The notes below the pieces were generated by a model. That model was given only the letters and a program-made list of their open reading frames with translations, searched no databases and was not told the origin of the DNA. From assembly GCA_934162285.1 (NCBI GenBank), contig CAKPHY010000006.1, forward strand, positions 288 to 64,287: a DNA stretch of 64,000 bases. The letters are read 5' to 3'. Shown here in pieces: positions 26,799 to 55,945 of this stretch. The position numbers and the translations under genes were made by a program. The DNA comes from an uncultured Bacilli bacterium (GTDB lineage: Bacteria > Bacillota_I > Bacilli_A > RF39 > UBA660). Numbering within the stretch: the first letter of the stretch is position 1; the number at the start of each line of letters is the position of its first letter.

Positions 26799-26808
26799 AA
26801 AATACCTC

Positions 26809-35996: not shown

Positions 35997-38632
35997 ATAG
36001 CGATAGGTAAATTTTTGATATAATCTCCAATTTTTCCCCCGCTCCACACCGTACGTGAGACTTTCACCTCATACGGCGTTCCATCAAAAATTTAATTATT
36101 TATTGTTTTAATATTAACTTAATATATTTTTCTTTATCTTATATAGGCTGCAGCCCAGCCTGATTTCTTAATTTATTAACCTTATCAGTTTGTTCTTTAT
36201 TCAAAGAATATTCTTTTAAATAACGGTTAATTGTATTTTTATCCTTGGCATGAATTAATTTATGAATATCTTCATGTAATATTATCAAATTTTCATATTT
36301 GTCGGTTCCACCTAAATGTTTAGGAATTTTATGATGACAATGTATTTCATCATATTCAAGTGTAGTTTTAAGAACTGCACATTTCCCATATTGAGATGTA
36401 TATTTTGATATTCTATTATCCATATATTCAACTGACTCAAACTCATTTATATTACTTGCAAGTTTATGCATAATAGTTGTATTTAATTCTAATTCCTTAT
36501 GTATTAAAGACCTACCTTCTTCAGTATATTTGTTTATTAGCTTATTTTTATACATCGGATGTTTAGTTTTAATATAACCAATCGGACATATTACTCTATT
36601 ATTTATATATCTAATTTGAGCACTCTTACCATATCTTCGTTTTATATACCCATTTTCGATTTTTCCATATTTTGATAACCTATCACCCAGTCTTATTTTC
36701 AATATGTTATTTATCTGATATGAAATATTATCACAATCTTCATTTATATCAGTTGCATATTGATAATAATTATGAATTCCCCATACTGTAGAATTATATA
36801 AATTTACATATTTATATTCATCTTTAGTATGTTTAACCTTTTCCAACTTAATAATTATGTGTTTTAATTCAGTAATAATTCTTTCTTTAGATTTGTTATT
36901 CATACATGACTTTACGACATAACTATTTCTTTTTGGAATAACTTTCAATTTAAACCCTAGAAATTCTGAATAATTCATCTTTAAATTAGTTATTTTTGAT
37001 TTTTCCATAGATATGTCAAGTTTTAATCTATCTTTTAACCATAATTTAGTAGCTACAAATATTTTCTTGGCTTCATTATAATTTTTGCAAAAGATTTTGA
37101 AATCATCTGCATATCTTACAATATACATTTCTTTTAAATTGCTTCTTCTTAACGCTCTATATTGATTACTCTTAATTAAAACACCTTTATTATTAACTCC
37201 ACAACTATAATCATTTTTGACAGGAAAACTTTCCCATTGACTAGATATCCACCAATCTAATTCATTCAAAACAATATTCGATAGAAGTGGTGACAAAATT
37301 CCTCCTTGTGGAGTTCCTTTATCACTTTTAATTATTGCTCCATCTGGCATATGGATTGGAGTTTTTAAAATTATTTTTAAGATTTTTAATAATTTTTTAT
37401 CTCTTATTCCAAATCGCCAAATTTGTCTTAATAATTTATTGTGATTTACATTATCAAAGAAACTTTTTATATCTATATCAACTACATAATGCAATTGTTG
37501 CTGTTGCATCATTCTATAACATTGAGCAAGTGCATGTTCTATACTTCTATTCGGTCTAAATCCATTACTTCTTTCGTGAAATTTAGCCTCGCAAATAGGT
37601 TCCAAAACCTGCAAAATACATTGTTGTATTATTCTATCCCATATTGTTGGAATACCTAAAGGTCTTAATTTCCCATTATGTTTGGGAATTTCTATTCTTC
37701 TTATTGCTTTTGGTATATAATTTTTAAATTTTTTCTTCACATAATAAATATATTTATCTTGAGATAATTTTTCAATATCTTTTATTGTTCTATTATCAGT
37801 ACCACTAGTATTAATACCAGTATTCTTTTTAATATTCCGATAAGCCAATAATATATTTTCTTTACTTGTTATTAAGTCCATCAAGTTATTAAACTTTCTA
37901 TTATTACAGCTATCTTGATATAATTTATCAAAAATATTTATCAAATTATAATATTCATTATGCCTTATTTTTGATTTTATTTGTCTTACTCGAATCTATA
38001 TTTATTAATATTTCAAATTCTATAATTAAAATTTGACTTGTGGCTATCCCTCCATTATTTATTAACATACTTCATAGGTACTATGCCACTACTCTCACTT
38101 TGATTAAGATAATTTATGTATTCATTATCAATACTTCATAGATTTGTAATCATCTCCGTATTCAAAGCTTTCCACGTTCCAATATTTCTATCTTTACATA
38201 TACCCTTAGGTGCTTTCTTTAAGCCTGTATGCTTGATAGTGCCTATAACACTATATGGATTTTCATAACTTCAATTTTTACTAATCCACACATACTGCAA
38301 ATTATTGCAATATACATTTCTATATATTAACCGTTTAGACCCGTACATTCAAAAGTTCGTCAGTATTAAATACATCCTCACCATAGATATTTTATAGACA
38401 TCCGGCCTATCAATTACACCATCTACCTCTAGATAGCTTTCGTAAGATAAATCTTTTACGGTAATTTTCAACCGACTTCACCGAGCTTTTAACATTTATT
38501 TATTACACAACAAATGCTAATCGGAGTATTAATGAGTCATTTCAAGGCGTTACCCTATCATTCTAACATTCGAAATATCAGTTTTCCTATTATAAATAGT
38601 AATTAAGCTTTTCACTTAATAACGTGTCGCAC
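35997..38632 (-). mobile_element. Group II intron (2636 nt) inserted in ssb
   Basis: The 5' end is GTGCGACACG at 38632. Domain V, GCCGTATGAGGTGAAAGTCTCACGTACGGT, is at 36048-36077. The 3' end reads ...CGCTAT at 35997. The RT/maturase ORF sits in the domain IV position. Joining 38633 to 35996 restores an in-frame ATC codon and the SSB sequence ...DTDF-I-SCVLW. Confidence 0.85.
36139..37944 (-). CDS. Group II intron-encoded protein: reverse transcriptase / maturase / HNH endonuclease
   Basis: 601 aa. RT motifs (GTPQGGILSPLLSNI, RYADDFKIF), maturase X region, and a C-terminal HNH (HCHHKIPKHLGGTDKYENLIILHEDIHKLIH). Confidence 0.9.
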   Translation of the reverse strand: MINIFDKLYQDSCNNRKFNNLMDLITSKENILLAYRNIKKNTGINTSGTDNRTIKDIEKLSQDKYIYYVKKKFKNYIPKAIRRIEIPKHNGKLRPLGIPTIWDRIIQQCILQVLEPICEAKFHERSNGFRPNRSIEHALAQCYRMMQQQQLHYVVDIDIKSFFDNVNHNKLLRQIWRFGIRDKKLLKILKIILKTPIHMPDGAIIKSDKGTPQGGILSPLLSNIVLNELDWWISSQWESFPVKNDYSCGVNNKGVLIKSNQYRALRRSNLKEMYIVRYADDFKIFCKNYNEAKKIFVATKLWLKDRLKLDISMEKSKITNLKMNYSEFLGFKLKVIPKRNSYVVKSCMNNKSKERIITELKHIIIKLEKVKHTKDEYKYVNLYNSTVWGIHNYYQYATDINEDCDNISYQINNILKIRLGDRLSKYGKIENGYIKRRYGKSAQIRYINNRVICPIGYIKTKHPMYKNKLINKYTEEGRSLIHKELELNTTIMHKLASNINEFESVEYMDNRISKYTSQYGKCAVLKTTLEYDEIHCHHKIPKHLGGTDKYENLIILHEDIHKLIHAKDKNTINRYLKEYSLNKEQTDKVNKLRNQAGLQPI

Positions 38633-40673: not shown

Positions 40674-40825
40674 TTAAATCACCAAAAACATTATAGTATA
40701 ATAATCAAGTTTTATCAAGAAAAAAGCCTTGAATTTATTATATAAAATTATATAATATGTAATGAGGTGATAAAACGAAAAAAGCTTATCTTGAAATTAA
40801 AGAAGAATTTTTAAAAGAAAAGAAA

Positions 40826-41557
40826 TTGAAAAAAAGTTTTAAGGAAAAAATTCCCAACATATTAACACTGTCGAGAGGCTTTGCCCCTTTAGTTGTTGTA
40901 CCCTTAATTATGACTGGAAATATCGTTCCCGGATTAATTGCTGGCTGTTTATTCGCAAGTACCGACTTTTTTGATGGGCTTTTAGCAAGGAAATTCAATG
41001 CATCTTCGACATTCGGGCAAAAATTAGATCCTATATGTGATAAAATTTTTGCCGTATCGCTTCTAGGTAGTGCTGCTATTATTAACCCTTTATTAATGCT
41101 AAATATTGTCCTAGAAGTATTAATAAGTGCTATAAATATTAAATCATTAGAAAAAGACAACAAACCTAAAACTACTATCCTCGGTAAAATTAAAACGTTC
41201 TTGTTATCTTTAAATATTCTTGCAACCTTAATTCCTGGAGTAAGTAAAATTACTTCTGATGTTCTAATTGCAATAACATTATTATGCCAAATGGCAACAG
41301 CTGCCGAATATGCGAAGATTGATAAACAAAAAGACATAACTAAAAACTCCAAAAACAGTATAAATACTTCTAATGAAGATAAAAAAGAAAAAGTTAAAAC
41401 TAAAGAAAAAGAAATGACAAATTCGAAGTCAAAAACCCCTTCCAAGAAAATAATTAGAAGAAAGCAAAAAATTGAATTGTTAAAATATAAAAAATCATTA
41501 CTGGTCCCCGAAAAAGAAAAAGTTTATACAAAACATCATGAAAAAAACAGATCTTAA
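40826..41557 (+). CDS. CDP-alcohol phosphatidyltransferase (PgsA-like) with a Lys-rich C-terminal tail
   Basis: DFFDGLLARKFNASSTFGQKLDPICDK is the D-x2-D-G-x2-A-R...G-x3-D-x3-D motif. TTG start as in the track. The approximately 80-aa tail is K/E/S-rich. Confidence 0.8.
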   Translation: MKKSFKEKIPNILTLSRGFAPLVVVPLIMTGNIVPGLIAGCLFASTDFFDGLLARKFNASSTFGQKLDPICDKIFAVSLLGSAAIINPLLMLNIVLEVLISAINIKSLEKDNKPKTTILGKIKTFLLSLNILATLIPGVSKITSDVLIAITLLCQMATAAEYAKIDKQKDITKNSKNSINTSNEDKKEKVKTKEKEMTNSKSKTPSKKIIRRKQKIELLKYKKSLLVPEKEKVYTKHHEKNRS

Positions 41558-41574
41558 ATTTTAGATCTGTTTTT
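41541..41574 (+). terminator. Bidirectional intrinsic terminator
   Basis: A run, ACAGATCT-taaatttt-AGATCTGT, then T run. Lies between convergent genes. Confidence 0.65.
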
Positions 41575-41612
41575 AGTTTGAAATAAATATTATAAGTTTA
41601 GATTTTTATATT

Positions 41613-42326
41613 TTAACTAATATATTCCGAATAATAGTTTTTTAGAAATTCTTGATATGCGTTTTCTTCTAAATTTAAAGGTATTTTTTTGATAGTAAAA
41701 TTAGGATCTTTAAATTTTATTAGTTCCTTTATAAAATATCTTAAAAACTCAGGATTTCTTGCTAATAAAGGCCCTAGTAAATAAGTGCCATAAAAATGAT
41801 ATTCATTATAACCTTCATTAACATCATTTTGATTATTTCCTGCACCCTTAATGCTTTGAAAAAAAGGATGTTGATTATTTACTATAAAACTATTTCTATT
41901 ATTAAATCCAAGAATATAAGAAGAAATCAAAACTGTTTTGTACAAAGCTTCATCAACAATTCGTTTGTCACTTGTTTTTGCAGAATAAGAAAATACTTCT
42001 AAAGCCTTTATTTGATCTATTTCTTTACCAAATAATTCTATAGCATTTCCTGTTGCTAAAACAAATTTTCCACTTAATATAAATTCTTTCATTTCTTCTT
42101 TATATTTTTTCAAATGTTCTAAAGCTAATAGTTGATTTTTCTCACTACCTGATCCCACATAAATTAAATCGACATCAGTTAAATCAATTTCATCATCTAA
42201 AGTAGAAAATTTTAAGGAAACGTCAATATCTAGTGATTCTAATGATTTTTTTAAAACTTTTACATTTCCACTTTCACCATATAAATTTAAAAGATCATAA
42301 TATAAATATAAAATAGTTATTTTCAT
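41613..42326 (-). CDS. GatD-like CobB/CobQ-type glutamine amidotransferase homologue lacking the nucleophile Cys and catalytic His (copy 1)
   Basis: 237 aa. Alignable along its length to GatD (LNLYGESGN, DLIYVGSGSEKNQ, GTYLLGPLLARNP). It has LATGNAIELFG where the Cys motif is expected, Leu instead of His, and no Cys anywhere. ATGA overlap with the upstream MurT-like gene. Confidence 0.75.
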   Translation of the reverse strand: MKITILYLYYDLLNLYGESGNVKVLKKSLESLDIDVSLKFSTLDDEIDLTDVDLIYVGSGSEKNQLLALEHLKKYKEEMKEFILSGKFVLATGNAIELFGKEIDQIKALEVFSYSAKTSDKRIVDEALYKTVLISSYILGFNNRNSFIVNNQHPFFQSIKGAGNNQNDVNEGYNEYHFYGTYLLGPLLARNPEFLRYFIKELIKFKDPNFTIKKIPLNLEENAYQEFLKNYYSEYIS

Positions 42327-43645
42327 TTATTTGCACCTTCACTCATCAAATCATAAAATGGTTGAACATAATCAAAATTTACAATAGCATATATGCTTCC
42401 ACGAGTTTTATTTTCTATATATCGAGTTGCTTCATCCAATTTTTCAAATGTTACTACCTTATCTTCAAGATCTGCATACTTTAATCTTGTAGCAATATCA
42501 TAGCGATTAATACCTACACATATTATTTTCTCAATTTCTTCTTTTTTCAATAGCTCAAATTCAATATCATATAGCCAAGATAAATCATCAAATTTGTATC
42601 GTCTAGATATTTCTTTCCAACCAATTAGTATTACTTTTTGTCCTTTAAAACGACTAACATATAATAGGGATTGATTGAATGTTGAAGAATTTTCATTTTT
42701 ATTGTTTAAAATTGTAATACTTCTATTTTTATAATTGTATTTATTTAATAATTTTTTATTTTTATATATATTATTTATACTAATTCCAATTCTATCATTA
42801 GATATTCCTAATAAAGAGCACATCGTAAAAGCCGCTGCGATATTCGTTATAGCAAATAAAATATTATATGGTATATTTACAATTGTACCATTTATTTTTA
42901 TATAACATTTATCATAATCTATTTTTTCAACTAAATATTCTATTTGAGGTCTTTTGAAATCACATTTTGGGCAGTAGTAATCACCACTATCTTCAAAATC
43001 ATAATAATTATACTCTAACTTAGAGTGACACTTTGGACAATAATTAGTATTTAAACTATTGAATTTTGATACTTTATAAGAGTATTTATTTTTAGCTATA
43101 CCATAATATGTTACCTCGTTTTCTTGTACAAATTGCCTTAAGTTTGGTTCGTCACCATTTAATATTAAGTGCATATCATTGGTTAAAGCTTTTTTTATTT
43201 CGTTGGCTACAATATCTGTATTTCCTTGTCTTGGCGGTTGATCTCTTGTAATGTTGGTAATTATCACGTAATTTGGTTTTACCTCTTTAAAAACATATTT
43301 TGTGTATCTTTCATCTACTTCATAAACTATAATGTCAGCATCAATTTCACCACGTAAATTAGAATTTTCTAAAAGAAGTGTCAATATGCCATATAGTAAA
43401 TTGGCACCAGATTCGTTATGCACAACTCGATAGCCATTTTGCCTTAAAACATTAGCAATTGTTGATGAAGTGCTCCCTTTCCCACTGCTACCTGTGACGG
43501 CAATTATTGTCTTTGGCATCTTAAAATATTTGAATATATTTTTATTAATTTTTAGGGCAAATTTACCTGGTAATGAACTACCCTTATGACAAACTCTTCC
43601 TACTAAAATAATTAATTTACTCATTAATATTGTTAAAAAATTCAT
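42323..43645 (-). CDS. MurT-like Mur ligase family protein (DUF1727 C-terminal domain), copy 1
   Basis: 440 aa. P-loop AVTGSSGKGSTSS, VYEVDERY, ITNITRDQ, four-Cys ribbon CPKCHSKL...CPKCDF, DLSWLYD. Confidence 0.85.
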   Translation of the reverse strand: MNFLTILMSKLIILVGRVCHKGSSLPGKFALKINKNIFKYFKMPKTIIAVTGSSGKGSTSSTIANVLRQNGYRVVHNESGANLLYGILTLLLENSNLRGEIDADIIVYEVDERYTKYVFKEVKPNYVIITNITRDQPPRQGNTDIVANEIKKALTNDMHLILNGDEPNLRQFVQENEVTYYGIAKNKYSYKVSKFNSLNTNYCPKCHSKLEYNYYDFEDSGDYYCPKCDFKRPQIEYLVEKIDYDKCYIKINGTIVNIPYNILFAITNIAAAFTMCSLLGISNDRIGISINNIYKNKKLLNKYNYKNRSITILNNKNENSSTFNQSLLYVSRFKGQKVILIGWKEISRRYKFDDLSWLYDIEFELLKKEEIEKIICVGINRYDIATRLKYADLEDKVVTFEKLDEATRYIENKTRGSIYAIVNFDYVQPFYDLMSEGANK

Positions 43646-43781
43646 ATTACCACTTCCATATAAAATATTATAGCATAAATTTTAATATTTTAATTTTTTT
43701 TCTAATTATAGCTTATTTTGTCGAAACCATAATTTTTGTTTTTGAATTGTGTTATAGTGTTTTTGGTGAAAAGGTGAAAAT

Positions 43782-44027
43782 ATGATTAAAGATATAATCT
43801 TAAAAAAAGATAACTTAAATATTTATTTAGAAAACGAAATTAATGACTCTTTAATGGAGATTCTAAGGAAAAGATTATCGTGTATCATTAGAAATTTTAA
43901 AATTTTAAATATCACATTTTTTTTAAAAAATATCGATGAAGCTGATCTTAATAAATTTAACAATTTTTCTTATCAATACCCAGATATTAATATTTCCTTT
44001 ATAGCATCAAGTCTAGCAAATAATTAA
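43782..44027 (+). CDS. Small hypothetical protein (81 aa) immediately upstream of MurT-like copy 2
   Basis: ORF with RBS GGTGAAAAGGTGA. Ends 12 nt before the MurT-like GTG start. No recognisable motif. Confidence 0.35.
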   Translation: MIKDIILKKDNLNIYLENEINDSLMEILRKRLSCIIRNFKILNITFFLKNIDEADLNKFNNFSYQYPDINISFIASSLANN

Positions 44028-44039
44028 GGAGTTGATAAT

Positions 44040-45362
44040 GTGTTTGCCATATTAGTTGGAAAAGTATTTTCTTTTGTAGGAGGAGTAATTCATAGAGGAA
44101 GTTCATTACCAGGAAGTATTGCCTTAAAACTAAACAAAAACCTCTTAAGAAAATTTAAATTACCTAAAAATATTATTGCTGTTACGGGTTCTTCAGGAAA
44201 AGGAACTACTTCTAAAATGATCGCTTCTGTTTTAAGAAACCAAGGTTTAAAGGTTGTACATAATTATCGTGGTGGCAACCTAAAAGCTGGTATTACAACA
44301 ATGTTAGTTGAGGCATCAACATTAACTGGTAAAATAAAAGCTGATTATCTTGTCTATGAAATTGATGAAAGATATTTTAAACAGGTTTGCAAAATTTTAA
44401 AACCAGGAACTATTGTAATAACTAATCTTGTTCGTGATCAACCACCAAGACAAGGTCACACTGATTTTGTATACGAAGATATAAAAATGTGTTTAACAGA
44501 TAAAACACACCTAATTTTAAATGCCGATGATCCTTATTTGCAAAAATTTGCTTTAGAAATAAAGTGTCCTATAACTTATTATGGTATTGAAAAAAGTAAG
44601 TATTCATATTTAAAAAATCATTATGAAAATTTAGTAATGGAATATTGCCCTGTTTGTCATAATAAATTAAAGTACAATTATTATCATTTTGAAATTTATG
44701 GTGATTATTATTGTCCACACTGTGACTTTAAACGTCCAAATCCTAAATACAAAGTAAATAATATTGATTATGAAAAAGGAATAATGACTGTAAATGGTAA
44801 ATATAACATAAATATTTTAAATAATATCTTATATAATATTTATAATATATTAGCAACAATCACAACTTTGGGAAGCTTAAATTTTAAACTTGATGATTTT
44901 ATTCCTTACATAAATAAAAGTGAATATGATCATAAACTTTGCAATCATTTTAAAATTAAAAATAGAGATGCTTTTGTCTTTTATAGTAAAAATGAAAATA
45001 GTACATCATTTAATCAAGCTTTAAATTATATGGACAGATCCGATGATTTAAAAACTGTTGTTGTAGGATGGGAAACAATAAGTCATCGTTACCCTTACAA
45101 TGATATTTCTTGGATTTATGATATTAATTTTGAAATCTTAAAAAATAATAATGTAAATGAAGTTATTTGTGTTGGTCCTACTTGCTATGATATTGCTACT
45201 CGTATAGAAATTGCTGGCATTGGTAAAGAAAAAATAGTAACTTTTAAAAATTTTAATGATTCTTTAGATAAAATTTTAAACAATACTAAAGGAAATATTT
45301 ATTTTATCGTTAACCCTGACTATGTAATTCCCCTATTGAAAATCTTAAAAGGAGGAAAATAA
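44040..45362 (+). CDS. MurT-like Mur ligase family protein, copy 2
   Basis: 440 aa. GTG start with AAGGAG RBS. AVTGSSGKGTTSK, VYEIDERY, ITNLVRDQ, CPVCHNKL...CPHCDF, DISWIYD. Roughly half the residues are identical to copy 1 by eye. Confidence 0.85.
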   Translation: MFAILVGKVFSFVGGVIHRGSSLPGSIALKLNKNLLRKFKLPKNIIAVTGSSGKGTTSKMIASVLRNQGLKVVHNYRGGNLKAGITTMLVEASTLTGKIKADYLVYEIDERYFKQVCKILKPGTIVITNLVRDQPPRQGHTDFVYEDIKMCLTDKTHLILNADDPYLQKFALEIKCPITYYGIEKSKYSYLKNHYENLVMEYCPVCHNKLKYNYYHFEIYGDYYCPHCDFKRPNPKYKVNNIDYEKGIMTVNGKYNINILNNILYNIYNILATITTLGSLNFKLDDFIPYINKSEYDHKLCNHFKIKNRDAFVFYSKNENSTSFNQALNYMDRSDDLKTVVVGWETISHRYPYNDISWIYDINFEILKNNNVNEVICVGPTCYDIATRIEIAGIGKEKIVTFKNFNDSLDKILNNTKGNIYFIVNPDYVIPLLKILKGGK

Positions 45363-46093
45363 TGAAAATAGTTATTGCTTATTTATATTATGATCTTCTT
45401 AACCTATATGGTGAAAAAGGTAATTTAAAAGAAATAATTAAAGAATTAAAAAATCAAGATATTAATTATGAAATTAAGTATTTATCCATTAATGATGATT
45501 TAAAATTTGAAAATTATGATTTAGTTATCATGAATGCTGGTACTGAAAATAATCAAGAAATTGTTATTAAGCATTTAAAAAAATATAAAAAAGAGCTAAA
45601 AAAAGCTATTGAAAATAACAAGTTTTTCTTAATCACCGGAAATGCTATTGATTTGTTTGGAAGAAATTTACTTAAAAATAAAAAGAAATTTTTAGGAATT
45701 TTTAAATATGATATAGTTAAAACTAATAAAAGAGTTGTTAATGATGCTTTGTTTAAAGATCAAAATGATAATTTAATTATTGGTTTTCAAAATCAAAGTA
45801 GTTATTTGACTAATATAAAATACCCATTATTTACAAAAGTAATTGGTTTTGGATCAAATAGTAAAGTAGAAGGAATTCATTATAAAAATTTTTATGGAAC
45901 TTATTTATTAGGTCCTTTACTAATTAGAAATCCTTTATTTTTTGAAAGTTTCTTAAAGAATCTTATATTATCTAAGGTGAAAAATTTTGATTTTAAAGAT
46001 TTCAATTTAGAGTTGGAAATAGAAGCCTATAAAACCTTCGTAGAATTACATTATAGTCAATATATAACAGATGTAAATAGTTTTATTTCCTAA
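45362..46093 (+). CDS. GatD-like amidotransferase homologue lacking Cys and His (copy 2)
   Basis: 243 aa. LITGNAIDLFG and GTYLLGPLLIRNP. No Cys in the whole protein. Start overlaps the MurT-like stop (TAATG). Confidence 0.75.
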   Translation: MKIVIAYLYYDLLNLYGEKGNLKEIIKELKNQDINYEIKYLSINDDLKFENYDLVIMNAGTENNQEIVIKHLKKYKKELKKAIENNKFFLITGNAIDLFGRNLLKNKKKFLGIFKYDIVKTNKRVVNDALFKDQNDNLIIGFQNQSSYLTNIKYPLFTKVIGFGSNSKVEGIHYKNFYGTYLLGPLLIRNPLFFESFLKNLILSKVKNFDFKDFNLELEIEAYKTFVELHYSQYITDVNSFIS

Positions 46094-46153
46094 CAATATT
46101 TTTATTTATAATTTAAAAGAAACTGAATTTACTCAGTTTCTTTATTAAAAAAT

Positions 46154-47803
46154 CTATTTTGTAAGTTTTTTATGTTTAAATATCTTATTAAAGATATCCT
46201 TCAAATCAAACCCAAACATTTTTTTTAGTAGTCTATTATCATTAGCTAAATAAATATATATTACGCCTCCTACAATAGCATATAACATAGATAGTAATAT
46301 GTAATTAATTTTTGTTGTTTGAATTGAAACTGGAACAAATAGTTCAAGTATTAAAAGCGATACAAACATTATTAAAGAAATTAAAATGGTTTTTAAGACT
46401 GGATTTATACTTTGACGATAACTAATTTTATATTTTTTTATTTGAACAAAAATGATTATAAATGCTGTTAAAAAATGTAAAATTATATTTAAAATAATTG
46501 GTCCATATCCAGCATTTATCCCTATTAAAGAACATAATCGCATGAATGGTGTATTTAATAAAGCTTTAAGAGTAAAACTTATAAATAATGTTCCTAAAGC
46601 TAATTTAGTCTTACCTAATACTTGAGAAGAATCAATAGCTAGTGAATAAAAGCTAAAACTAATTGCTTGAAAAACATATAATTTGAAAATAGATATTCCT
46701 AGTTCATTATATCCATAAAATAAGGTCCATACTGGTGTTGCAAGCATATATAATCCTATAACTAATGGTAGATTAACAAATAAAATTATTTGAAAGCTTT
46801 GATTTAATTTATTATTTACATCCTCAAGATCTCCTTTAACATAACTAGTTGTTATTGTTGGAATTAAAGATAATGTTAATCCTGATACAAAAGCAATAAC
46901 TATCATATTTATTTTTGAACCCCAAGTAGAAATAACACTCAAGATATACTCAGAATCACTTAAGCTATATCCTAAACTGGTCAATGTTGAATTTACCGTA
47001 AAGGTATCAACAATCGAATAAATAGACCTAACAAATTCAATTACCACAAATGGCAAAGATGTTAAAATAATTCTTTTTAAAATAGTTTTAGTTGTATTAT
47101 TCTTTTCCTCTATCGTTTTACGTGCATTAGTTTTAAATAAACTTTTATTTTTATCTCGTTTAACTACTAAATATAAATATGCTGCAAAAGCACCAACGGT
47201 TGCCCCAAATACGGCTACGCCAACCGTTATAGCAATTGGAAAATTAAATACACGTGCTGCTATATAACTCCCAATAAGAACGAATAAAACACGAACAATC
47301 TGTTCTATAACATTAGAAATAGCACACAAAGAAATATACTTATGTCCGCTCAAATATCCTTTTATAGTTGAAAGAAATGGAACAATAATTAAAGCACTAG
47401 AAATACATCTAATTACCAAAGCAACATCGGCAATAGTATTTCCACCTTCAACATTGCCAATTATTAAATAGGCAATTTTTTCAGCAAAGAGCATCATAAC
47501 AATGAACCAAAGTGTTCCTAAAGCAACCATTAAATTACGAACTATACGATATGCTTTTTCTTTCGACCATTGATAATTTTTGGTATTATATTCGCTTACA
47601 ATTTTACTCATAGCTGCAGGAATTCCTTGACTAGAAAGAGTTAAAAATAGTGAATAAATAGTATAAGCATAGCTATACAATGCTCCACCTTGACTACCAA
47701 TTATTTGATAAAAAGGGATTACATACAAAAGACCTACTATCTTGCAAATTATAACTCCGGCTGTTGAAACAAATGCCCCACTTAAAAAGCCATTCTTTTT
47801 CAC
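46154..47803 (-). CDS. MOP-superfamily flippase (polysaccharide biosynthesis protein; SpoVB/YtgP/MurJ-like)
   Basis: About 14 predicted TM helices. N-terminus KKNGFLSGAFVSTAGVIICKIVGLLYVIPF is typical of this family. Start set at GTG 47803 (RBS GGAGG). Confidence 0.75.
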   Translation of the reverse strand: MKKNGFLSGAFVSTAGVIICKIVGLLYVIPFYQIIGSQGGALYSYAYTIYSLFLTLSSQGIPAAMSKIVSEYNTKNYQWSKEKAYRIVRNLMVALGTLWFIVMMLFAEKIAYLIIGNVEGGNTIADVALVIRCISSALIIVPFLSTIKGYLSGHKYISLCAISNVIEQIVRVLFVLIGSYIAARVFNFPIAITVGVAVFGATVGAFAAYLYLVVKRDKNKSLFKTNARKTIEEKNNTTKTILKRIILTSLPFVVIEFVRSIYSIVDTFTVNSTLTSLGYSLSDSEYILSVISTWGSKINMIVIAFVSGLTLSLIPTITTSYVKGDLEDVNNKLNQSFQIILFVNLPLVIGLYMLATPVWTLFYGYNELGISIFKLYVFQAISFSFYSLAIDSSQVLGKTKLALGTLFISFTLKALLNTPFMRLCSLIGINAGYGPIILNIILHFLTAFIIIFVQIKKYKISYRQSINPVLKTILISLIMFVSLLILELFVPVSIQTTKINYILLSMLYAIVGGVIYIYLANDNRLLKKMFGFDLKDIFNKIFKHKKLTK

Positions 47804-47915
47804 TTTAATTACGCCTCCAATATAGTAAATTATAACAATTTTAAATAATTTAGTAAATGATTTATTGTCTTTTAACAATGATTTTGCAATATTTTTAATA
47901 AAGGAGAATTGAGTT

Positions 47916-48923
47916 ATGAAAAGATTAAAATATTTATGTAAAAAGGTATTTACTTGGAATTATAAAGACGCATATACTAGAGCAAAAATATTAAAGAAAA
48001 AATATGGTGGTAATGCATTTTTTATATGGTGTGATATGATAATATGCGGTGCTTTATATGGAGCTGGTTATATCGACTACGATGAATTCGAATTTAATCT
48101 GTTAAGTAAGAAACAAAGAGAAACATATTTAACAACTGAAATTAATAATAAAATTGTAAAAAAATATAACGCTCCTAATTATCGTTACATTTTTAAGGAC
48201 AAAATTGAATTTAATTGCTTATTTAAAGATTATATTAAAAGAGATTTTTTATCTATTCGTGATAATGATACTACAGTTGAAGAATTTAAGGCTTTTTCTT
48301 TAAAACATAAAAAAATTGTTGCTAAGGCTGTAGATGCTATGCATGGATTAGGTATTGATTTTTATGACGTTGACGAAACAACAAATTTTGAAGAATTATA
48401 TAATAAGTTAAGAAAAAACAAACAATATCTTATCGAAGAATGTATTGTTCAACATTCCGAAATGGCTAAATTATATAAAGGTAGTGTCAATAGTTTAAGA
48501 GTTATAACATTCTTAACTGATGATGGAAATGTTGTAATATTAAGAATGGTCTTAAAAATTGGCAATAAAGAAGGTATTGATAATTGTCGTAATGGTGGTA
48601 TGTATACATTTTTAGATGATAATGGCGTTGTTCTTCTTCCAGCTTTTGATGAAAACAACAATATTTATGAAAAACATCCAAAAAGTGGAACTGAAATCGT
48701 CGGCTTTAAAGTACCATATTATAAAGAAATTCAAGAATTAGTTAGCAAAGCTGGAAAAGTAGTACCTGAAATACGTTATGTTGGCTGGGATATTGCCATA
48801 ACAGAAAAAGGTCCAATTATCATTGAGGGTAATGAATATAGTGGAATTTTCCAAATGAAAGCTAGTATGAATCCAACTAAGATTGGTGATTTACCTCGAT
48901 TTAGAAAATACATGGATATTTAA
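47916..48923 (+). CDS. ATP-grasp enzyme of the sugar-transfer-associated (ATPgrasp_ST) type
   Basis: 335 aa. LIEECIVQHSEMAKLY..SVNSLRVITF...GIDNCRNGGM...VGWDIAITEKGPIIIEGN matches my recollection of that family. Confidence 0.65.
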   Translation: MKRLKYLCKKVFTWNYKDAYTRAKILKKKYGGNAFFIWCDMIICGALYGAGYIDYDEFEFNLLSKKQRETYLTTEINNKIVKKYNAPNYRYIFKDKIEFNCLFKDYIKRDFLSIRDNDTTVEEFKAFSLKHKKIVAKAVDAMHGLGIDFYDVDETTNFEELYNKLRKNKQYLIEECIVQHSEMAKLYKGSVNSLRVITFLTDDGNVVILRMVLKIGNKEGIDNCRNGGMYTFLDDNGVVLLPAFDENNNIYEKHPKSGTEIVGFKVPYYKEIQELVSKAGKVVPEIRYVGWDIAITEKGPIIIEGNEYSGIFQMKASMNPTKIGDLPRFRKYMDI

Positions 48924-48958
48924 GCACTTTTAAGTGCTTTTTTTATTAAAAAAACTAA

Positions 48959-49219
48959 TTATCGACTTTCGACAATTAGTTTAATTGCAGTTTTTTCTTC
49001 TCCTTCAACTTCTATATCTGTAAATGTTGGTGTGCAAACCAAATTTTTACCACTAGGTGCAACGAATCCCCTGGCGATCGCGATTGCTTTTATTCCTTGA
49101 TTTAGAGCCCCAGCTCCAATTGTTTGAACTTCTACAGTATTATTTTCCCTTAAAATATTAGCAAGAGCTCCAGCTACTGAGTTAGGGTTTGATTTTGATC
49201 CTACTTTTATTATTTCCAT
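48959..49219 (-). CDS. spoVS: Stage V sporulation protein S
   Basis: MEIIKVGSKSNPNSVAGALANILRENNTVEVQTIGAGALNQGIKAIAIARGF is near-canonical SpoVS. Start moved to ATG 49219. Confidence 0.9.
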   Translation of the reverse strand: MEIIKVGSKSNPNSVAGALANILRENNTVEVQTIGAGALNQGIKAIAIARGFVAPSGKNLVCTPTFTDIEVEGEEKTAIKLIVESR

Positions 49220-49268
49220 ATTTTTTCTTCCTTTCATTTAATTATATTTAAACAAAAGAAAAATAGAA

Positions 49269-50060
49269 CTATTTTGTGATCGTTCTATCATTTCCTACTA
49301 CGCAGTTGCGATTAATCTTAGCCTTATATAATTGTTCGTCTGCTAGTTCAATTAATTTTATTATTAAGTCTTCTGGCTTTATATTTTGATTTTCTTGAAT
49401 AAAAGAATGAGAAATATGAAATAAACCAAAAGACATTGTTACACTTTTACTATCAACTTCATTGGTTTCAATAGCAACTCGCAGTTTTTCACAGACATTA
49501 TAAGCATTATCAGCAGTTAAGTTTTTTAAAACAATCAAAAATTCTTCACCACCATAGCGACCGACTAAATCTTTAGAGCGTACTTCACTATTTCTAACAT
49601 TTTCATTTAAAACATTGGCTACACTTACAAGTACTTTATCACCAAAAATATGGCCGTAGGTATCATTAAATTTTTTAAAGTAATCAATATCAGCCATTAT
49701 TACAGCAAATTCTTCATCATATGTAAATGCATATTTTAAATATTCAAAATATTTTTCAAACAAAATTTTTCTTGATAGTACTTGAGTCAAGTCATCTAAA
49801 CAATCTTCAATATTACATGCATTAATATAATTTTTATAAATACTATTAATATCAAGCATTTCATAGTTTTTACCTTGTTTTATTATTTTATAATATTTTA
49901 AATCTTTCAAATTGAAACAAACATCAGATGAAACAAGTTGAAAATCTTCTAATTTAAAATCTGTTAAACTTACAACATCAATTTCACTTCTAAATATTTG
50001 TTCGTTATTTATTATTAATCTAGAACTATTTTTAATTTTTTCTAAATCTTTTAATTTCAT
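49269..50060 (-). CDS. GGDEF diguanylate cyclase with an intact active site and I-site
   Basis: ADIDYFKKFNDTYGHIFGD and RSKDLVGRYGGEEF (R-x-x-D five residues before GGEEF). The approximately 95-aa N-terminal domain is of unknown type. Confidence 0.85.
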   Translation of the reverse strand: MKLKDLEKIKNSSRLIINNEQIFRSEIDVVSLTDFKLEDFQLVSSDVCFNLKDLKYYKIIKQGKNYEMLDINSIYKNYINACNIEDCLDDLTQVLSRKILFEKYFEYLKYAFTYDEEFAVIMADIDYFKKFNDTYGHIFGDKVLVSVANVLNENVRNSEVRSKDLVGRYGGEEFLIVLKNLTADNAYNVCEKLRVAIETNEVDSKSVTMSFGLFHISHSFIQENQNIKPEDLIIKLIELADEQLYKAKINRNCVVGNDRTITK

Positions 50061-50062
50061 AT

Positions 50063-50983
50063 TTACCCCTTAAACATTGCCTCAATTGCATCTTTATAAA
50101 CTTTATAGGCTTTATTATACCCATTTGTAACCAAATTAACATAATTAGATATCATAACACCACTATTTATTTCCATAATCATTATTTTACCATCAGTTGT
50201 TCTAATAACATCAACACTACAGAATCTTAAACCACTTACTTTATAAGCTTCTAATGCTAAAGTAATTATTTCATTATCTATCGTTTCTTCTACTATAGCT
50301 CCTTTTGATAAATTAAATAACCAACTATACTCCACTTTCTCATTTTGATTTGGTATATAATTTAAATCTATATTTTCGTTATAAAAATGTTCGTCTTTAT
50401 TAAAATAATTGGGATTAAATTTATTTAATAATTCCTTTATAGTCGACTTACCATCACCGACAACAACAGGTTTTTGTTTGGCATAACTTAATTCAACTTT
50501 ACCATCTAAAACAATAACACGATATTCTTTTTCTATATGATAGTAAGGGCAAAGAGAAATAGAAAAGTTTTTAACTAAAACTTTTTCTAATTTTTCTTTT
50601 AAAGATTCTTCATCATTAATGCGAAAAACATTATTACCACACGTTCCTTTATTAGGTTTTAAAACAATATCTTTATTGTGAGCTAAGAAATAATTATAAG
50701 TATCTAAATAAGTATTATGTCCTACTGCATAATCATCTTTATTATTAAATTCATAGAATATTTCATGTTCTATAACAGGAATATTATTTAATTTTAATAG
50801 TTTATATAAAGCATACTTGTCATCAGCAACTAGACCGGCTGCCATATTGTTTAAATCAAACTTATACCCTACTATTAAATGTTTACATTTACCATTATCT
50901 AATAAAAAAGCATAGTTCATTGAAAATGATTGAATCTTTATATTTAATTTTTGACATACATCTTTAATTAATTGTTCAAACAT
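50063..50983 (-). CDS. ATP-grasp domain protein (RimK / cyanophycin-synthetase-N-like)
   Basis: 306 aa. VLKPNKGTCGNNV, EKEYRVIVLDG, FNLSKGA, VDVIRTTDGKIMIMEINSG. Its stop lies 3 nt from the GGDEF start. Confidence 0.65.
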   Translation of the reverse strand: MFEQLIKDVCQKLNIKIQSFSMNYAFLLDNGKCKHLIVGYKFDLNNMAAGLVADDKYALYKLLKLNNIPVIEHEIFYEFNNKDDYAVGHNTYLDTYNYFLAHNKDIVLKPNKGTCGNNVFRINDEESLKEKLEKVLVKNFSISLCPYYHIEKEYRVIVLDGKVELSYAKQKPVVVGDGKSTIKELLNKFNPNYFNKDEHFYNENIDLNYIPNQNEKVEYSWLFNLSKGAIVEETIDNEIITLALEAYKVSGLRFCSVDVIRTTDGKIMIMEINSGVMISNYVNLVTNGYNKAYKVYKDAIEAMFKG

Positions 50984-53077: not shown

Positions 53078-54157
53078 ATGTCTAAAAATGACAAAAAAAG
53101 AAGGATTATTATTGAAATAATAGGAGGTTTTATATTACTTGCAATAATTATTTTTTTAGTATTTTTTTTGAATCGTAAGTATGAGGTAAGTTTTTATCTA
53201 GATAATGGTTCAGATGTTCAGGTAGTATATGTTAAACATAATAAAATAATAAATTCAAGTAATATTAAAGGTAAGGAAGATTTAGGAGAATCATTTGTTG
53301 ATTGGTATGAAATTGTTGATGTTAAAGATGGAAAAGACATTTTAGCAGAAAAACCATTTGATCTTAAAACTAAAATTAATAGAAATGTTAAATTAAAAGC
53401 AGTTTTTAATGATGATGTAAAAACAATTACTATTAAATTTGATTCAAAAGGAGGAAGTGAGGTTAAAGACATTGTTATTCATGAAAATGTTAAATTAAAA
53501 CTTCCAACTGAGCCAAGTAAAACAGGTTATAAGTTTGTCGGATGGGAAGATAAAAATGGAACACCAATTTATAACGATGCTCTATTAAGTGAAGATACAA
53601 CTCTATATGCAAAATGGAAAAAAATAGAAGAAAATAAAACTTCAAGTAAAGAACAAACACAAACAGATAATAAAAATACAGTATCTTATTATTGTGAAAG
53701 TGGCTATGTTTTAAATGGAACTAAATGTACTAAAACTGAAACTAAAAATGCAACTGGTAGATGTCCACAAGGTTATAGTGCAGGAGCATGGGATTATGAT
53801 TATTGTAAAACTGAAATAGATCCAGAAGAAGAATACAGATGCACAGATATAGATAAAACGAGTTACAAAGCAAGTGAAGCTGTTCTTGATTCAACAACAA
53901 ATGATTGCTATTATAGAAAAGATTATGCTGAATCAGATCCACTTTATTGTTCAAAGCATGGTAGAGTATATTATAATGGTTATTGTTATTATGCTTCATT
54001 TGATGCTAATAAAGTTAAATATTGTTCTTCAGGAACATTAAATTCTAGTGGTATGTGTGATCTACAAATAAAAAAAGTATTTAAGTGCGAAAACGGATGG
54101 AAATTGGAAAATAAAAAATGTACTAAGACAACAGTTGTAGATGCTAAGAAAAAATAA
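53078..54157 (+). CDS. Membrane-anchored surface protein with a Listeria-Bacteroides (Flg_new) repeat and Cys-rich C-x3-Y-x-L-x-G-x-x-C modules
   Basis: 359 aa. TM segment IIIEIIGGFILLAIIIFLVFFL. TIKFDSKGGSEVKDIVIHENVKLKLPTEPSKTGYKFVGWEDKNGTPIYNDALLSEDTTLYAKW is the Flg_new repeat. CESGYVLNGTKCT, CPQGYSAG and CENGWKLENKKCT resemble the modules of the 9072-10544 product. Confidence 0.7.
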   Translation: MSKNDKKRRIIIEIIGGFILLAIIIFLVFFLNRKYEVSFYLDNGSDVQVVYVKHNKIINSSNIKGKEDLGESFVDWYEIVDVKDGKDILAEKPFDLKTKINRNVKLKAVFNDDVKTITIKFDSKGGSEVKDIVIHENVKLKLPTEPSKTGYKFVGWEDKNGTPIYNDALLSEDTTLYAKWKKIEENKTSSKEQTQTDNKNTVSYYCESGYVLNGTKCTKTETKNATGRCPQGYSAGAWDYDYCKTEIDPEEEYRCTDIDKTSYKASEAVLDSTTNDCYYRKDYAESDPLYCSKHGRVYYNGYCYYASFDANKVKYCSSGTLNSSGMCDLQIKKVFKCENGWKLENKKCTKTTVVDAKKK

Positions 54158-54181
54158 AAATTTTAAAAACTAATGTAAAAA

Positions 54182-54229
54182 AATCAAGGTCTAATGAATA
54201 ATCTAGTTCATCTAAGCCTTGATTTTTTT
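54182..54229 (+). terminator. Intrinsic terminator after the 53078 gene
   Basis: AATCAAGG ... CCTTGATT with inner pairing, followed by seven T. Confidence 0.6.
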
Positions 54230-54391
54230 GTTTAATTTACTTTTTTAATTTAAATATATTTAAATTAGTATAAATATTTATATTAAAAAAGTTATAATAT
54301 GAGTTATATTATTAATAGATTGATTTAATCAATTACTTGTTTTTGTTTCTATTTTTCGTAAATGTTCCATGTCATTGCTCCAATCGAAATC

Positions 54392-54419
54392 AACTTACGG
54401 ACTTAAAAGTTCGTAAGTT
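54392..54419 (+). other. 13-bp inverted repeat (one mismatch): candidate oriT or recombinase site, or a terminator
   Basis: AACTTACGGACTT-aa-AAGTTCGTAAGTT followed by a T-rich tract. Lies between cargo and the recombinase stub/relaxase. Confidence 0.35.
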
Positions 54420-54471
54420 TTTATTTTTATATAAAACTTCAAAAGTTCTCTTTCTTTCAAGGAGAAAAAAT

Positions 54472-54543
54472 ATGAGATGTGGTATTTATGTAAGAGTATC
54501 TACTGACGACCAAAAAGAGGAAAAAATTATCAGAATAATTTAA
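54472..54543 (+). pseudogene. Serine recombinase gene stub (23 codons)
   Basis: RBS AAGGAGAA, then MRCGIYVRVSTDDQKEEKIIRII-stop. (A/G)IY.RVST..Q is the N-terminal catalytic-Ser motif of resolvase/large serine recombinases. The remainder of the gene is missing. Confidence 0.6.
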
Positions 54544-54643
54544 TCCTCTTTTTGTTTTTTTTTGAATATGGGAATAAAATATATGTCTAGCGAGCAACGG
54601 GCTGGTACTCCCACCACCCCAAAATAAAGGAGAAACCATATAA

Positions 54644-55945
54644 ATGACGACAACATCAATCTGGAGTATTAAGAATAATTTAAAGCAGTCTATAAATTAT
54701 ATTATCAACCCTGAAAAAACAACTAATGAAAATTATGGTGAAGTTGATTATGATTATTTAGAAGGTAAAAAAGATTATAATTTCAAAAAAGAAAAAGTTT
54801 GTTATGTAAGTACACTAAATTGTGATGAGAGTAATCCCTATGATGATATGTGTGACACAAAGGATTATTTCAGAAAGAAAGATGGCATTTTAGCATTTCA
54901 TGGTTATCAATCATTTAAAGAAGGAGAAGTTACTCCAGATATTGCTCATGAGATAGGAGTTAAGTTTGTTAGTGAAATGTTTAAAGATTATGAAGTGGTT
55001 GTTGCAACACATCAAAATACTAACCACATACACAATCATTTCATAATCAACTCTGTTTCCTGTAAAGATGGTAAGAAATATAATAACAATAGAACTAATT
55101 TAGCAAAATTAAGACATATATCAGATTCAATATGTGCTGAATATGGGCTATCTGTTTTAGATGAAGATATTAGTTATAAAAGCACCTATAATCATAAAGT
55201 TATTAATAACGATTATTATAAAAAACTTAAAGAAGATTTAGATAATTCTATAAGTTATTCAGTTACTTTAAAACAATTATTTGATAGAATGAGAACTATC
55301 GGTTATAAAGTATACTATCGTAATGGTGTAATAACTATTTATAGAGATGGTGAAGATAAGGTTAGAATAGAAAAAGCATTTGGTGAAGAATACTCAAAAG
55401 ATAGATTAAGTGAAAGGCTTTATTCATCAAGTCAAATAATATTTAAGCCTATGTCACAAAAATCTATCTTTGAAGAATACTGTAAAACTAATAAACCTAA
55501 TAAAGGAATCTATGGATTGTATTTATACTATTGTTATTTATTAGGAATATTTTCAAAGAAACACCCTAAGCAATATCTTCCTTATTCCATTAGAAAAGAA
55601 GTCTATAAATTAGAGCAAACATCACAACAAGTTAGATTTATGCACGAGAATAATATCGTTACAAAAGAAGATTTAGATAATTTTGCTAAAAGTAATAATG
55701 AACAGTTAAGTGAATTAAAAGGTAAAAGAGAAAACCTTTGGAAAAGATACCATAGAGCAAAAACTGAAGATAAGAAAAATAAAATACTTGCTGAAATAAA
55801 TGATATACAACCCAAAATCAAAGAACTCTATAAGTATGATAAGTATTGTAAAGAAATAATTAAGCGAGCTGAAGGCATACAAAATAACCTTAATAATTTT
55901 GATAAAGATATCCAAAAAGAAAAAGACAATTCTAGGTCAATGTGA
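54644..55945 (+). CDS. Relaxase/mobilization nuclease (MOB) protein
   Basis: 433 aa. ATHQNTNHIHNHFIINSV is the relaxase His-rich metal motif. The N-terminus IWSIKNNLKQSINYIINPEKT is typical of this Firmicute MOB family. RBS AAAGGAGAA. Confidence 0.8.
   Translation: MTTTSIWSIKNNLKQSINYIINPEKTTNENYGEVDYDYLEGKKDYNFKKEKVCYVSTLNCDESNPYDDMCDTKDYFRKKDGILAFHGYQSFKEGEVTPDIAHEIGVKFVSEMFKDYEVVVATHQNTNHIHNHFIINSVSCKDGKKYNNNRTNLAKLRHISDSICAEYGLSVLDEDISYKSTYNHKVINNDYYKKLKEDLDNSISYSVTLKQLFDRMRTIGYKVYYRNGVITIYRDGEDKVRIEKAFGEEYSKDRLSERLYSSSQIIFKPMSQKSIFEEYCKTNKPNKGIYGLYLYYCYLLGIFSKKHPKQYLPYSIRKEVYKLEQTSQQVRFMHENNIVTKEDLDNFAKSNNEQLSELKGKRENLWKRYHRAKTEDKKNKILAEINDIQPKIKELYKYDKYCKEIIKRAEGIQNNLNNFDKDIQKEKDNSRSM

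Follow-up and report, generated by a model that had tools for sequence, protein, structure and literature searches.

Two coupled MurT/GatD-like gene pairs at one locus

We analysed a stretch of 64,000 nucleotides (here called the window) from an uncultured Bacilli bacterium (GTDB lineage Bacteria; Bacillota_I; Bacilli_A; RF39; UBA660; GenBank assembly GCA_934162285.1, contig CAKPHY010000006.1, positions 288 to 64,287). Positions 41613-46093 of the window hold five open reading frames (ORFs): two divergent gene pairs, each encoding a MurT-like ligase (T1 or T2) and a GatD-like protein (G1 or G2), and an 81-codon ORF (Table 1). MurT and GatD amidate the alpha-carboxyl of the D-isoglutamate of lipid II with ammonia derived from glutamine. 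We found that both GatD-like proteins have lost the residues of the glutaminase site, that the ligases keep their catalytic residues, and that the same substitutions recur across a large clade of homologues.

The original prediction, made from the letters of the DNA, proposed two divergent, translationally coupled MurT/GatD-like pairs, and the ORFs, domains and gene overlaps were all confirmed. Read directly, the T1 stop codon overlaps the G1 start as ATGA (junction AAATAAATGAAA) and the T2 stop codon overlaps the G2 start as TAATG (junction AAATAATGAAA). An AAGGAG site lies ahead of the GTG start of T2, and an AAGGTGA ribosome-binding site precedes the ATG of the 81-codon ORF. T1 and T2 are 50% identical and G1 and G2 46%, in agreement with the earlier estimate of about half. 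The T proteins match PF08245 (Pfam; E values of 8e-11 and 2e-12), and the best NCBIfam models for all four proteins are the MurT and GatD equivalogs (NF045635, NF052464, NF045636 and NF052463), with scores far under the cutoffs (174-212 against 800 for the T proteins, 84-95 against 400 and 450 for the G proteins). In the divergent region, a promoter scan returned 55 sites where 42 were expected, a result that is uninformative in DNA of 25% GC, and a terminator scan of the same 25% GC DNA found none.

Table 1 Features of the window (positions counted from its first nucleotide)
Feature	Positions	Strand	Basis or content
G1, GatD-like subunit without a glutaminase site	41613-42326	(-)	237-amino-acid ORF; GATase_3 domain
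T1, MurT-like ATP-dependent ligase	42323-43645	(-)	440-amino-acid ORF; Mur_ligase_M and MurT_C
Small ORF, possibly STAS-like	43782-44027	(+)	ORF call; 81 codons
T2, resident MurT-like ligase	44040-45362	(+)	440 amino acids, GTG start; Mur_ligase_M and MurT_C
G2, resident GatD-like subunit without a glutaminase site	45362-46093	(+)	243 amino acids; GATase_3
Insertion of 2.48 kb holding G1, T1 and the small ORF	41548-44023		blastn collinearity with locus L090
SpoVB/MurJ-like flippase	46154-47878	(-)	
'Sugar-transfer associated' ATP-grasp ligase	47916-48923	(+)	ATPgrasp_ST
Conserved block from the flippase onwards	46154-50983		
Second, RimK/cyanophycin-synthetase-like ATP-grasp	50063-50983	(-)	
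Group II intron interrupting ssb	35997-38586	(-)	Rfam D1-D4 at 38391-38586, 3' end at 35997-36081
Reverse-transcriptase ORF of the ssb intron	36139-37944		
Collagen-like Gly-rich repeat protein	22394-23227	(-)	Scl/Lcl-type matches
CotH-kinase-like, VTC-domain and DUF4956 proteins	26130-30371	(-)	
Strain-variable mobile region	53078-55945		

The GatD-like subunits have lost the glutaminase site

G1 and G2 were aligned by HMMER with solved GatD chains of S. aureus (5n9m, 6gs2), S. pneumoniae (6fqb) and S. pyogenes (9sq9), and the alignments are ungapped around the active site. Residue positions below follow S. aureus numbering unless they are tied to G1, G2, T1 or T2. The S. aureus segment L-T-I-C94-G-G-Y-Q-F-L-G-K corresponds to L-A-T-G-N-A-I-E-L-F-G-K, in which Cys94 is replaced by Gly, Gly95 by Asn and Ile93 by Thr. 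The nucleophile elbow thus reads T92-G93-N94 in both G1 and G2 (T-G-N below), with Gly93 at the position of Cys94. Similarly, G-T-Y-L-H189-G-P corresponds to G-T-Y-L-L-G-P, so that His189 is replaced by Leu184 in G1 and Leu183 in G2. Loss of the nucleophile and of the histidine had been predicted, and both substitutions hold in the alignments with the GatD of all three species. Both oxyanion-hole glycines, Gly60 and Gly95, are also replaced in G1 and G2. Arg128, the residue by which S. aureus GatD captures glutamine (PMC5871853), has a retained equivalent in both proteins, Arg122 in G1 and Arg124 in G2.

The fold is preserved. An AlphaFold (AF2) model of G1 has a pLDDT of 96.8 and a TM score of 0.87 to S. 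aureus GatD (6gs2_A) over 234 columns, and its next-best fold matches are the HisH and PdxT glutaminases. The C-terminal helix, the Y17 loop and Gly21 of GatD are present, as is an aromatic residue at position 354 of the MurT side (W360 in S. pneumoniae). In the model, a strand spans residues 88-92 and a helix residues 93-99; Thr92 ends the strand and Gly93 starts the helix, which places Gly93 at the nucleophile elbow. We also considered Thr as a shifted nucleophile and judged it unlikely from the ungapped alignments and the secondary structure of the G1 model. With the nucleophile, the histidine and both oxyanion-hole glycines gone, glutamine hydrolysis by a Cys-His mechanism is impossible, as originally proposed. 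In S. aureus, the C94S and D349N mutants are inactive with glutamine (PMC6113224).

The MurT-like ligases keep catalytic residues but lack the DNAAD motif

The expected intact P-loops (GSSGKGST and GSSGKGTT), four-cysteine ribbon (positions 203, 206, 225 and 228) and DLSW/DISW motifs were all found in T1 and T2. In T1, the P-loop spans G52-K56, followed by Asn82, Glu109, the Cys4 ribbon, S347-R-R-Y350 and Asp354, the equivalent of S. aureus D349; the corresponding residues of T2 are S348-H-R-Y351 and Asp355. All ATP, Mg and acceptor-carboxylate residues, as well as the zinc ribbon, are retained in both proteins, and the ligase half therefore appears to be catalytically complete. The acceptor-carboxylate Asn is N85 in S. 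aureus numbering, and its S. pneumoniae counterpart, which bears the same number, is essential (PMC6085368).

The segment ahead of the conserved tryptophan has been remodelled. N-D-N-A-A-D-G-R-D349-T-S-W in S. aureus corresponds to K-E-I-S-R-R-Y-K-F-D-D354-L-S-W in T1 and to E-T-I-S-H-R-Y-P-Y-N-D355-I-S-W in T2, so that DNAAD is replaced by WKEISRRY and WETISHRY, respectively. D349 is the third residue of the catalytic triad; the motif DNAAD is distinct from it and has been linked to binding of the stem peptide (Noldeke et al., PMC6113224). The original prediction had held that the acidic residue completing the glutaminase site was missing. This was wrong, because the triad Asp is kept in T1 and T2 and only the adjacent DNAAD motif is replaced. 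D349 and D355 equivalents are among the acidic residues that line the opening of MurT towards GatD (PMC6085368), and DNAAD corresponds to the motif DNPR/DNPA by which MurE recognizes the incoming amino acid (PMC3266927, PMC6113224).

The T-G-N form is widespread and always paired

A survey of homologues, suggested with the original prediction, showed that the T-G-N elbow is widespread. It is common to 204 of 211 sampled homologues and occurs in 76 of 80 species loci, the latter being the best 80 of at least 597 confirmed stretches in a scan of GTDB species genomes. Of the 120 database homologues closest to G2, every one has T-G-N and none has the histidine. An exhaustive HMMER search of 1.84 billion representatives of 50%-identity clusters returned 780 clusters at E<=1e-10, and the canonical C-G-G/H-G-P combination was present in only 6 of the best 150 of these. 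The complete absence of cysteine, noted in the original prediction, holds for G1 and G2 themselves but not for the clade: when G1 and G2 were aligned with their closest relatives, 91 of the 122 sequences carried at least one cysteine elsewhere, and the clade trait is Gly at position 94.

We compared the 204 non-Cys GatD-like proteins with the 7 canonical ones position by position. Cys94 is replaced by Gly in 203 of 204, Ile93 by Thr in 192 and Gly95 by Asn in 183. Further shifts affect G96 (to S/A), Q98 (to E/D), G60 (to S/A/C), E65 (to N), H149 (to K/R/Q) and H189 (to I/L/T). Retained in the same set are the interface and loop residues D12, N15, L16, Y17, G18, D/E19, G21, N22, R128 (in 184 of 204), G190, P191 and N196, together with G59, G61 and N148. 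That the same substitutions are found in about 200 divergent homologues makes the pattern far beyond chance.

The 79 MurT-like partners were tabulated in the same manner. All 79 keep GxxGK, N80, N85, E108, D110, E111, N130, R133, D134, Q135, R138, K315, S351, W352, D355 and three of the four ribbon cysteines; G83 (77/79) and the fourth ribbon cysteine, C226 (68/79), are mostly retained, and the D349 position is D in 58 and E in 21. DNAAD is replaced by S-x-[RK]-Y with a two-residue insertion, the S, the [RK] and the Y each being present in 79 of 79. These proteins also share co-ordinated changes of G112 to R, D137 to T/P/A, E141 to H and N-P-A-G to N-S-x-S/T. In every one of the 80 species loci the GatD-like gene lies directly downstream of the MurT-like gene; the pairing of the two genes is obligate, and they co-evolve. 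In a neighbour-joining tree built from the concatenated pairs and rooted on four canonical pairs, all T-G-N pairs fall in the ingroup, and several T-G-N subclades bear distinct motif variants.

Named hosts include uncultured gut Bacilli ('Tenericutes', 'Mollicutes'), Erysipelotrichaceae, Solobacterium, Oscillospirales, Oscillospiraceae, Acutalibacteraceae, Ruminococcus and Lachnospiraceae. Among the matches listed there is a single cultured host, [Eubacterium] siraeum V10Sc8a (locus L089), and the other names are almost only those of metagenome-assembled genomes (MAGs). Where the sample source of a recovered locus could be identified, it was mostly a gut or rumen metagenome. The T-G-N form is a large family of gut Firmicutes, and its members probably use free ammonia or another amine. 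In a divergent T-G-N subgroup of 267-367 amino acids (P0216, P0256), S-S-V-L-G stands at the site of G-T-Y-x-x-G-P. Both members that were looked up come from Coriobacteriia and Actinomycetes MAGs, which indicates that the loss of the cysteine is not confined to Firmicutes. A separate 726-amino-acid protein, P0249, has a canonical C-G-G/H-G-P GatD domain at residues 477-714 and is presumably a MurT-GatD fusion.

Many clade members are named 'glutamine amidotransferase' at NCBI. P0520, in the cluster of P0147, which has Gly at the nucleophile position, bears the JGI name 'lipid II isoglutaminyl synthase (glutamine-hydrolysing)'. Such glutamine-based names are likely to be mechanistic mis-annotations. 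Published surveys of where murT-gatD occurs take all homologues together as a single family (PMC6085368, PMC11915815), and our literature search found no description of a Cys-less GatD clade.

The pairs are under purifying selection and one was recently acquired

We estimated ratios of non-synonymous to synonymous substitution rates (dN/dS) by the Nei-Gojobori method. Against locus L090 the ratio was 0.09 for T2 and 0.37 for G2, and 0.09 and 0.12 for the neighbouring flippase and ATP-grasp genes, respectively; against locus L005, with dS saturated, it was 0.09 for T1 and 0.16 for G1. The GatD-like subunits thus evolve faster than the ligases, yet are clearly constrained. The ratio for G2 is four-fold above that of its partner over the same divergence, which fits a less constrained, non-catalytic subunit. 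Relaxation of G2 after the gain of pair 1 (T1 and G1) was rejected, as polarised changes numbered 8 and 8, with no acceleration in the lineage of the window. The original prediction had argued for selection from the substitutions shared by the two copies. Selection is borne out by the clade-wide new residues and by dN/dS values below 1, but the two copies are not independent evidence for it, because both belong to one pre-existing clade.

Positions 40800-41547 and 44024-46200 of the window align to L090 at 94-95% identity by blastn, and nothing aligns between them: the 2.48 kb with G1, T1 and the small ORF stands where L090 has 53 nt. Loci L087, L088 and L090 each have one MurT-like/GatD-like pair, and their G2 orthologues are 57-59% identical to G2 in L087 and L088 and 89-91% identical in L090 (about 94% at the nucleotide level). 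These three loci share synteny with the window on one side through sufB, sufU and a CDP-alcohol phosphatidyltransferase gene (the last absent in L087) and on the other through the flippase, ATPgrasp_ST and SpoVS. T1 and G1 group with L005 (77% and 71% identity) and other uncultured Bacilli, and T2 and G2 with L087 and L088. Because the insertion is missing from close relatives and T1/G1 group with L005, we conclude that pair 1 and the small ORF were gained recently, at the level of the strain or species, from a related lineage. The insertion boundaries and the separate tree groupings rule out an old tandem duplication as the origin of the pairs. A search for repeats flanking the insertion found only AT-rich chance matches.

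The small ORF lies between the pairs and ahead of the second, as predicted, although in relatives it accompanies pair 1 and not pair 2. Its homologues are found divergently upstream of pair-1-type MurT-like genes in at least eight loci (L005, L006, L010, L011, L012, L017, L019 and L021), and these positions indicate that the ORF moves together with pair 1; L005 has no second pair behind it. Two of the homologues match the STAS domain (PF01740) at 18.7 and 15.5 bits (E values of 0.0015 and 0.014), below the gathering score of 22.6, and the ORF of the window has no PF01740 match.

Ammonia-dependent amidation is the favoured explanation

The use of free ammonia with a required GatD-like partner is the most economical reading of this evidence. 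We tentatively favour, with somewhat less than an even chance of being right, a glutamine-independent, ammonia-using amidation of a peptidoglycan precursor, in which the GatD-like protein serves as an obligatory non-catalytic partner. Each pair would form a heterodimeric ATP-dependent carboxylate-amine ligase whose acceptor is most likely the alpha-carboxyl of the D-isoglutamate of lipid II. The MurT-like subunit would bind ATP and form an acyl-phosphate in the manner of Mur ligases, and the GatD-like subunit, unable to hydrolyse glutamine, would be retained as an obligatory structural partner. More speculatively, a polar pocket (Thr93, Gly94, Asn95, Glu/Asp98 and Asn65), together with Asp349 of MurT, may capture ammonium and pass NH3 to the ligase site. 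The net activity would be that of an ammonia-dependent isoglutaminyl synthase suited to the gut and rumen, habitats that are rich in ammonia. The role of non-catalytic partner, which the original prediction had assigned to the GatD-like subunit, has a precedent in S. aureus, in which GatD C94G loses glutamine-dependent amidation of lipid II, with NH3-dependent amidation intact at pH 8.5, and MurT on its own shows no activity, whatever the nitrogen donor (PMC3266927).

Several observations weigh against this explanation. The NH3-dependent activity of the S. aureus enzyme needed pH 8.5 and may not suffice in vivo. Plain loss of the glutaminase accounts neither for the replacement of DNAAD by S-x-[RK]-Y with its insertion nor for G112R, D137T/P/A, E141H and the change of NPAG to N-S-x-S, and these co-ordinated changes in MurT suggest altered recognition of the substrate or the nucleophile. 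One 'negative gate' residue, E198 in S. aureus, is Asn in T1 and Val in T2. In addition, two pairs in one genome are superfluous for a single amidation.

A switch of nucleophile or acceptor is therefore a serious rival, as the MurE equivalent of DNAAD helps to bind the incoming amino acid. One possible form of this switch is a neofunctionalised MurT-like ligase that joins a nucleophile other than ammonia to a stem-peptide carboxylate, with the GatD-like protein as a scaffold or an aid to amine binding. Candidate nucleophiles are glycine or another amino acid, a D-amino-acid amide, or a diamine (cadaverine, putrescine, Lys or Orn), and the nucleophile could differ between subclades and between the two pairs of the window. 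We consider this possible but doubtful. It would explain why a MurE-type amine-binding segment has given way to an invariant S-x-[RK]-Y, a basic motif that could bind a carboxylate, and it is consistent with the distinct motif variants of the subclades, with the presence of two 50%-identical pairs in one genome and with the conserved new residues of the GatD pocket, which suggest a ligand site rather than a dead site; moreover, the papers covered by our search name no gene for polyamine linkage to, or substituents on, the alpha-carboxyl of D-Glu. However, nothing speaks directly for any nucleophile other than ammonia, the second pair was inserted recently at the strain level and is not a fixed two-enzyme pathway, and D349, D355 and the Y17 loop, interface and gate residues that face the former glutaminase site, are kept although a ligase that bound its amine directly in the C-terminal domain would need none of them. 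The hosts are mostly ordinary gut Clostridia and Bacilli rather than taxa known for D-Glu alpha-substituents, and Negativicutes and Microbacteriaceae are absent among the matches listed. That the T-G-N family as a whole, in gut Firmicutes and some Actinomycetota, has given up making isoglutamine from glutamine and instead adds a different substituent, such as an amino acid or a polyamine, to a carboxylate of the stem peptide, with the old pocket and S-x-[RK]-Y selecting the amine, is an equally doubtful proposition. It is less likely still that the chemistry is unchanged and the acceptor is another one, such as the epsilon-carboxyl of meso-diaminopimelate (mDAP), a soluble UDP-MurNAc-peptide, a precursor of the spore cortex or germ-cell wall, or a non-peptidoglycan polymer. 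The replaced DNAAD motif is a proposed contact of the third stem residue, the proteins score far below the NCBIfam equivalog cutoffs (T, about 201-212 against 800; G1, 95 and G2, 92 against 400), and the hosts are spore formers. In the lineage of the window, the resident pair (T2 and G2) shares synteny with genes for a SpoVB/MurJ-like flippase, an ATP-grasp ligase and SpoVS. Against this, the acceptor-carboxylate Asn and the entire central domain show the same conservation as MurT, the flippase/ATP-grasp synteny is confined to one lineage, with no neighbour found in more than 10 of 80 loci, and the known amidation of mDAP is carried out by unrelated enzymes, AsnB/LtsA.

Two further explanations have little to recommend them. 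The GatD-like protein might still be an amidohydrolase that releases ammonia from glutamine or another amide by a non-cysteine mechanism, for example with an elbow-adjacent Thr and Asn/Glu helpers. Thr93, Asn95 and Glu/Asp98 are indeed newly and strongly conserved in the old active site, and the glutamine-capturing Arg128 (PMC5871853) is mostly kept. We nevertheless regard such a mechanism as very improbable: the elbow itself is Gly, with Thr92 at the end of the strand and Gly93 at the start of the helix in the model; the general-base His and both oxyanion-hole glycines are lost; and neither of the S. aureus mutants C94S and C94G is active when glutamine is the donor (PMC6113224, PMC3266927). 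We know of no class I amidotransferase with a Thr-based non-cysteine mechanism. Decay into non-functional MurT/GatD remnants would be in keeping with the loss of catalytic residues and with the faster evolution of G2 relative to T2, but is already contradicted, and hardly credible, given the intact, translationally coupled ORFs, the hundreds of divergent homologues with the same replacement residues, dN/dS below 1 in all four genes and the occurrence of an identical G2 in 97 assembly-index blocks.

Relation to known enzymes

The closest known system is MurT/GatD itself (EC 6.3.5.13; S. aureus, S. pneumoniae, S. pyogenes and also M. tuberculosis), with which the clade shares an overlapping two-gene murT-gatD operon. 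Like MurT, its ligases have a central domain with P-loop, Mg-binding Glu, acceptor Asn and Cys4 ribbon, followed by MurT_C with the interface motif D-x-S-W-x-[YW]-D, including the D349 equivalent; like GatD, its partners have the fold with the extra C-terminal helix, the Y17 loop, R128 and a G-P that follows the His position. Unlike GatD, they lack Cys94, His189, oxyanion glycines 60 and 95, Q98, E65 and H149; unlike MurT, the ligases lack DNAAD, D137, E141 and NPAG; and the NCBIfam equivalog cutoffs exceed the scores 4- to 5-fold. Given the catalytic losses, the clade is not expected to be glutamine-hydrolysing. By homology and architecture it is a relative of MurT/GatD that falls outside the glutamine-hydrolysing enzymes on the Cys, the His, the oxyanion hole, DNAAD and the cutoffs.

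The S. aureus GatD mutant C94G (Munch et al. 2012, PMC3266927) carries the same Cys-to-Gly substitution as the natural clade, but is an engineered single mutant with NH3 activity only at pH 8.5, whereas the clade has many co-ordinated changes in two subunits. Carbamoyl-phosphate synthetase I (CPS I) retains an inactive glutaminase domain and uses ammonia. It offers an analogy of evolutionary logic only: a class I amidotransferase module is kept without its catalytic Cys, and the synthetase has switched from glutamine to free ammonia, but that synthetase is unrelated, the polypeptide is fused and the organisms are eukaryotes. CPS I (PDB 5dou) was among the fold matches of G1, and in our clade, too, a dead glutaminase module is retained under selection. 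MurE, MurF, MurD and archaeal pMur ligases share the ATP-dependent acyl-phosphate mechanism and the central domain; unlike them, the MurT-like proteins have no N-terminal UDP-binding domain and do have the zinc ribbon, MurT_C and an obligatory GatD-like partner.

MurT/GatD is an essential drug target in pathogens, and whether its product is isoglutamine or isoglutamate shapes innate immune recognition. The annotations of the clade are likely to be mistaken as to mechanism, and perhaps also as to product. Should ammonia be the donor, the clade would represent a natural case of an amidotransferase adapted to ammonia-rich habitats with a pseudo-glutaminase kept as a scaffold. If it is another amine, the pairs would perform new peptidoglycan chemistry and might include the long-sought enzyme that decorates the alpha-carboxyl of D-Glu; such unrecognised cell-wall chemistry in abundant gut commensals would affect NOD1/NOD2 sensing and cross-linking. 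The clade is widespread in abundant gut taxa, mis-annotated and of inferred function, and the cultured, sequenced host [Eubacterium] siraeum makes it experimentally tractable.

Host and genomic neighbourhood

The host of the window is a human-gut bacterium of 26% GC. Identical proteins occur on Hadza metagenome contigs. It has the sporulation genes SpoIVB peptidase, Cse60, CotH and SpoVS, and its MurC scores 376 bits against an equivalog cutoff of 335; with a bona fide MurC, the host makes peptidoglycan.

When ORFs within 10 kb on either side of the pair were clustered, no neighbour beyond the pair itself occurred in more than 10 of the 80 species loci, and neither a separate glutaminase nor an amine-biosynthesis partner was found within that distance. 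The recurrent neighbours are housekeeping genes (pheST, era, recO, ybeY, dgkA, cdd and yqfD), in sets that include era-recO-ybeY-pheST or sufBU. In the lineage of the window, the SpoVB/MurJ-like flippase is conserved next to the resident pair, followed by the ATPgrasp_ST ligase and then SpoVS, and closer relatives add a GGDEF protein and the second ATP-grasp to this block. In L020, L024, L040 and L073, too, homologues of ATPgrasp_ST are found near the pair. The ATP-grasp ligases by the flippase could be further enzymes that modify cell-wall peptides.

Elsewhere in the window, the group II intron splits ssb, which was called as pieces of 53 and 74 amino acids on matching contigs; L003, L087, L088 and L090 have an intact ssb of 111 amino acids. 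The gene for the collagen-like repeat protein coincides with a GC peak of 0.36, compared with about 0.26 elsewhere. The CotH-kinase-like protein has 960 amino acids with LTD and Fn3-associated domains and is followed by the VTC-domain and DUF4956 proteins; this trio, conserved in L088, is spore-coat or polyphosphate-related. The mobile region lies downstream and varies between the window and the matching parts of L003, L004 and L090: the window, L001 and L003 have a relaxase there, L004 has a phage-type integrase, and L090 has a resolvase/recombinase with Mob_Pre. In L090, an IS-like transposase also lies between sufU and the phosphatidyltransferase gene.

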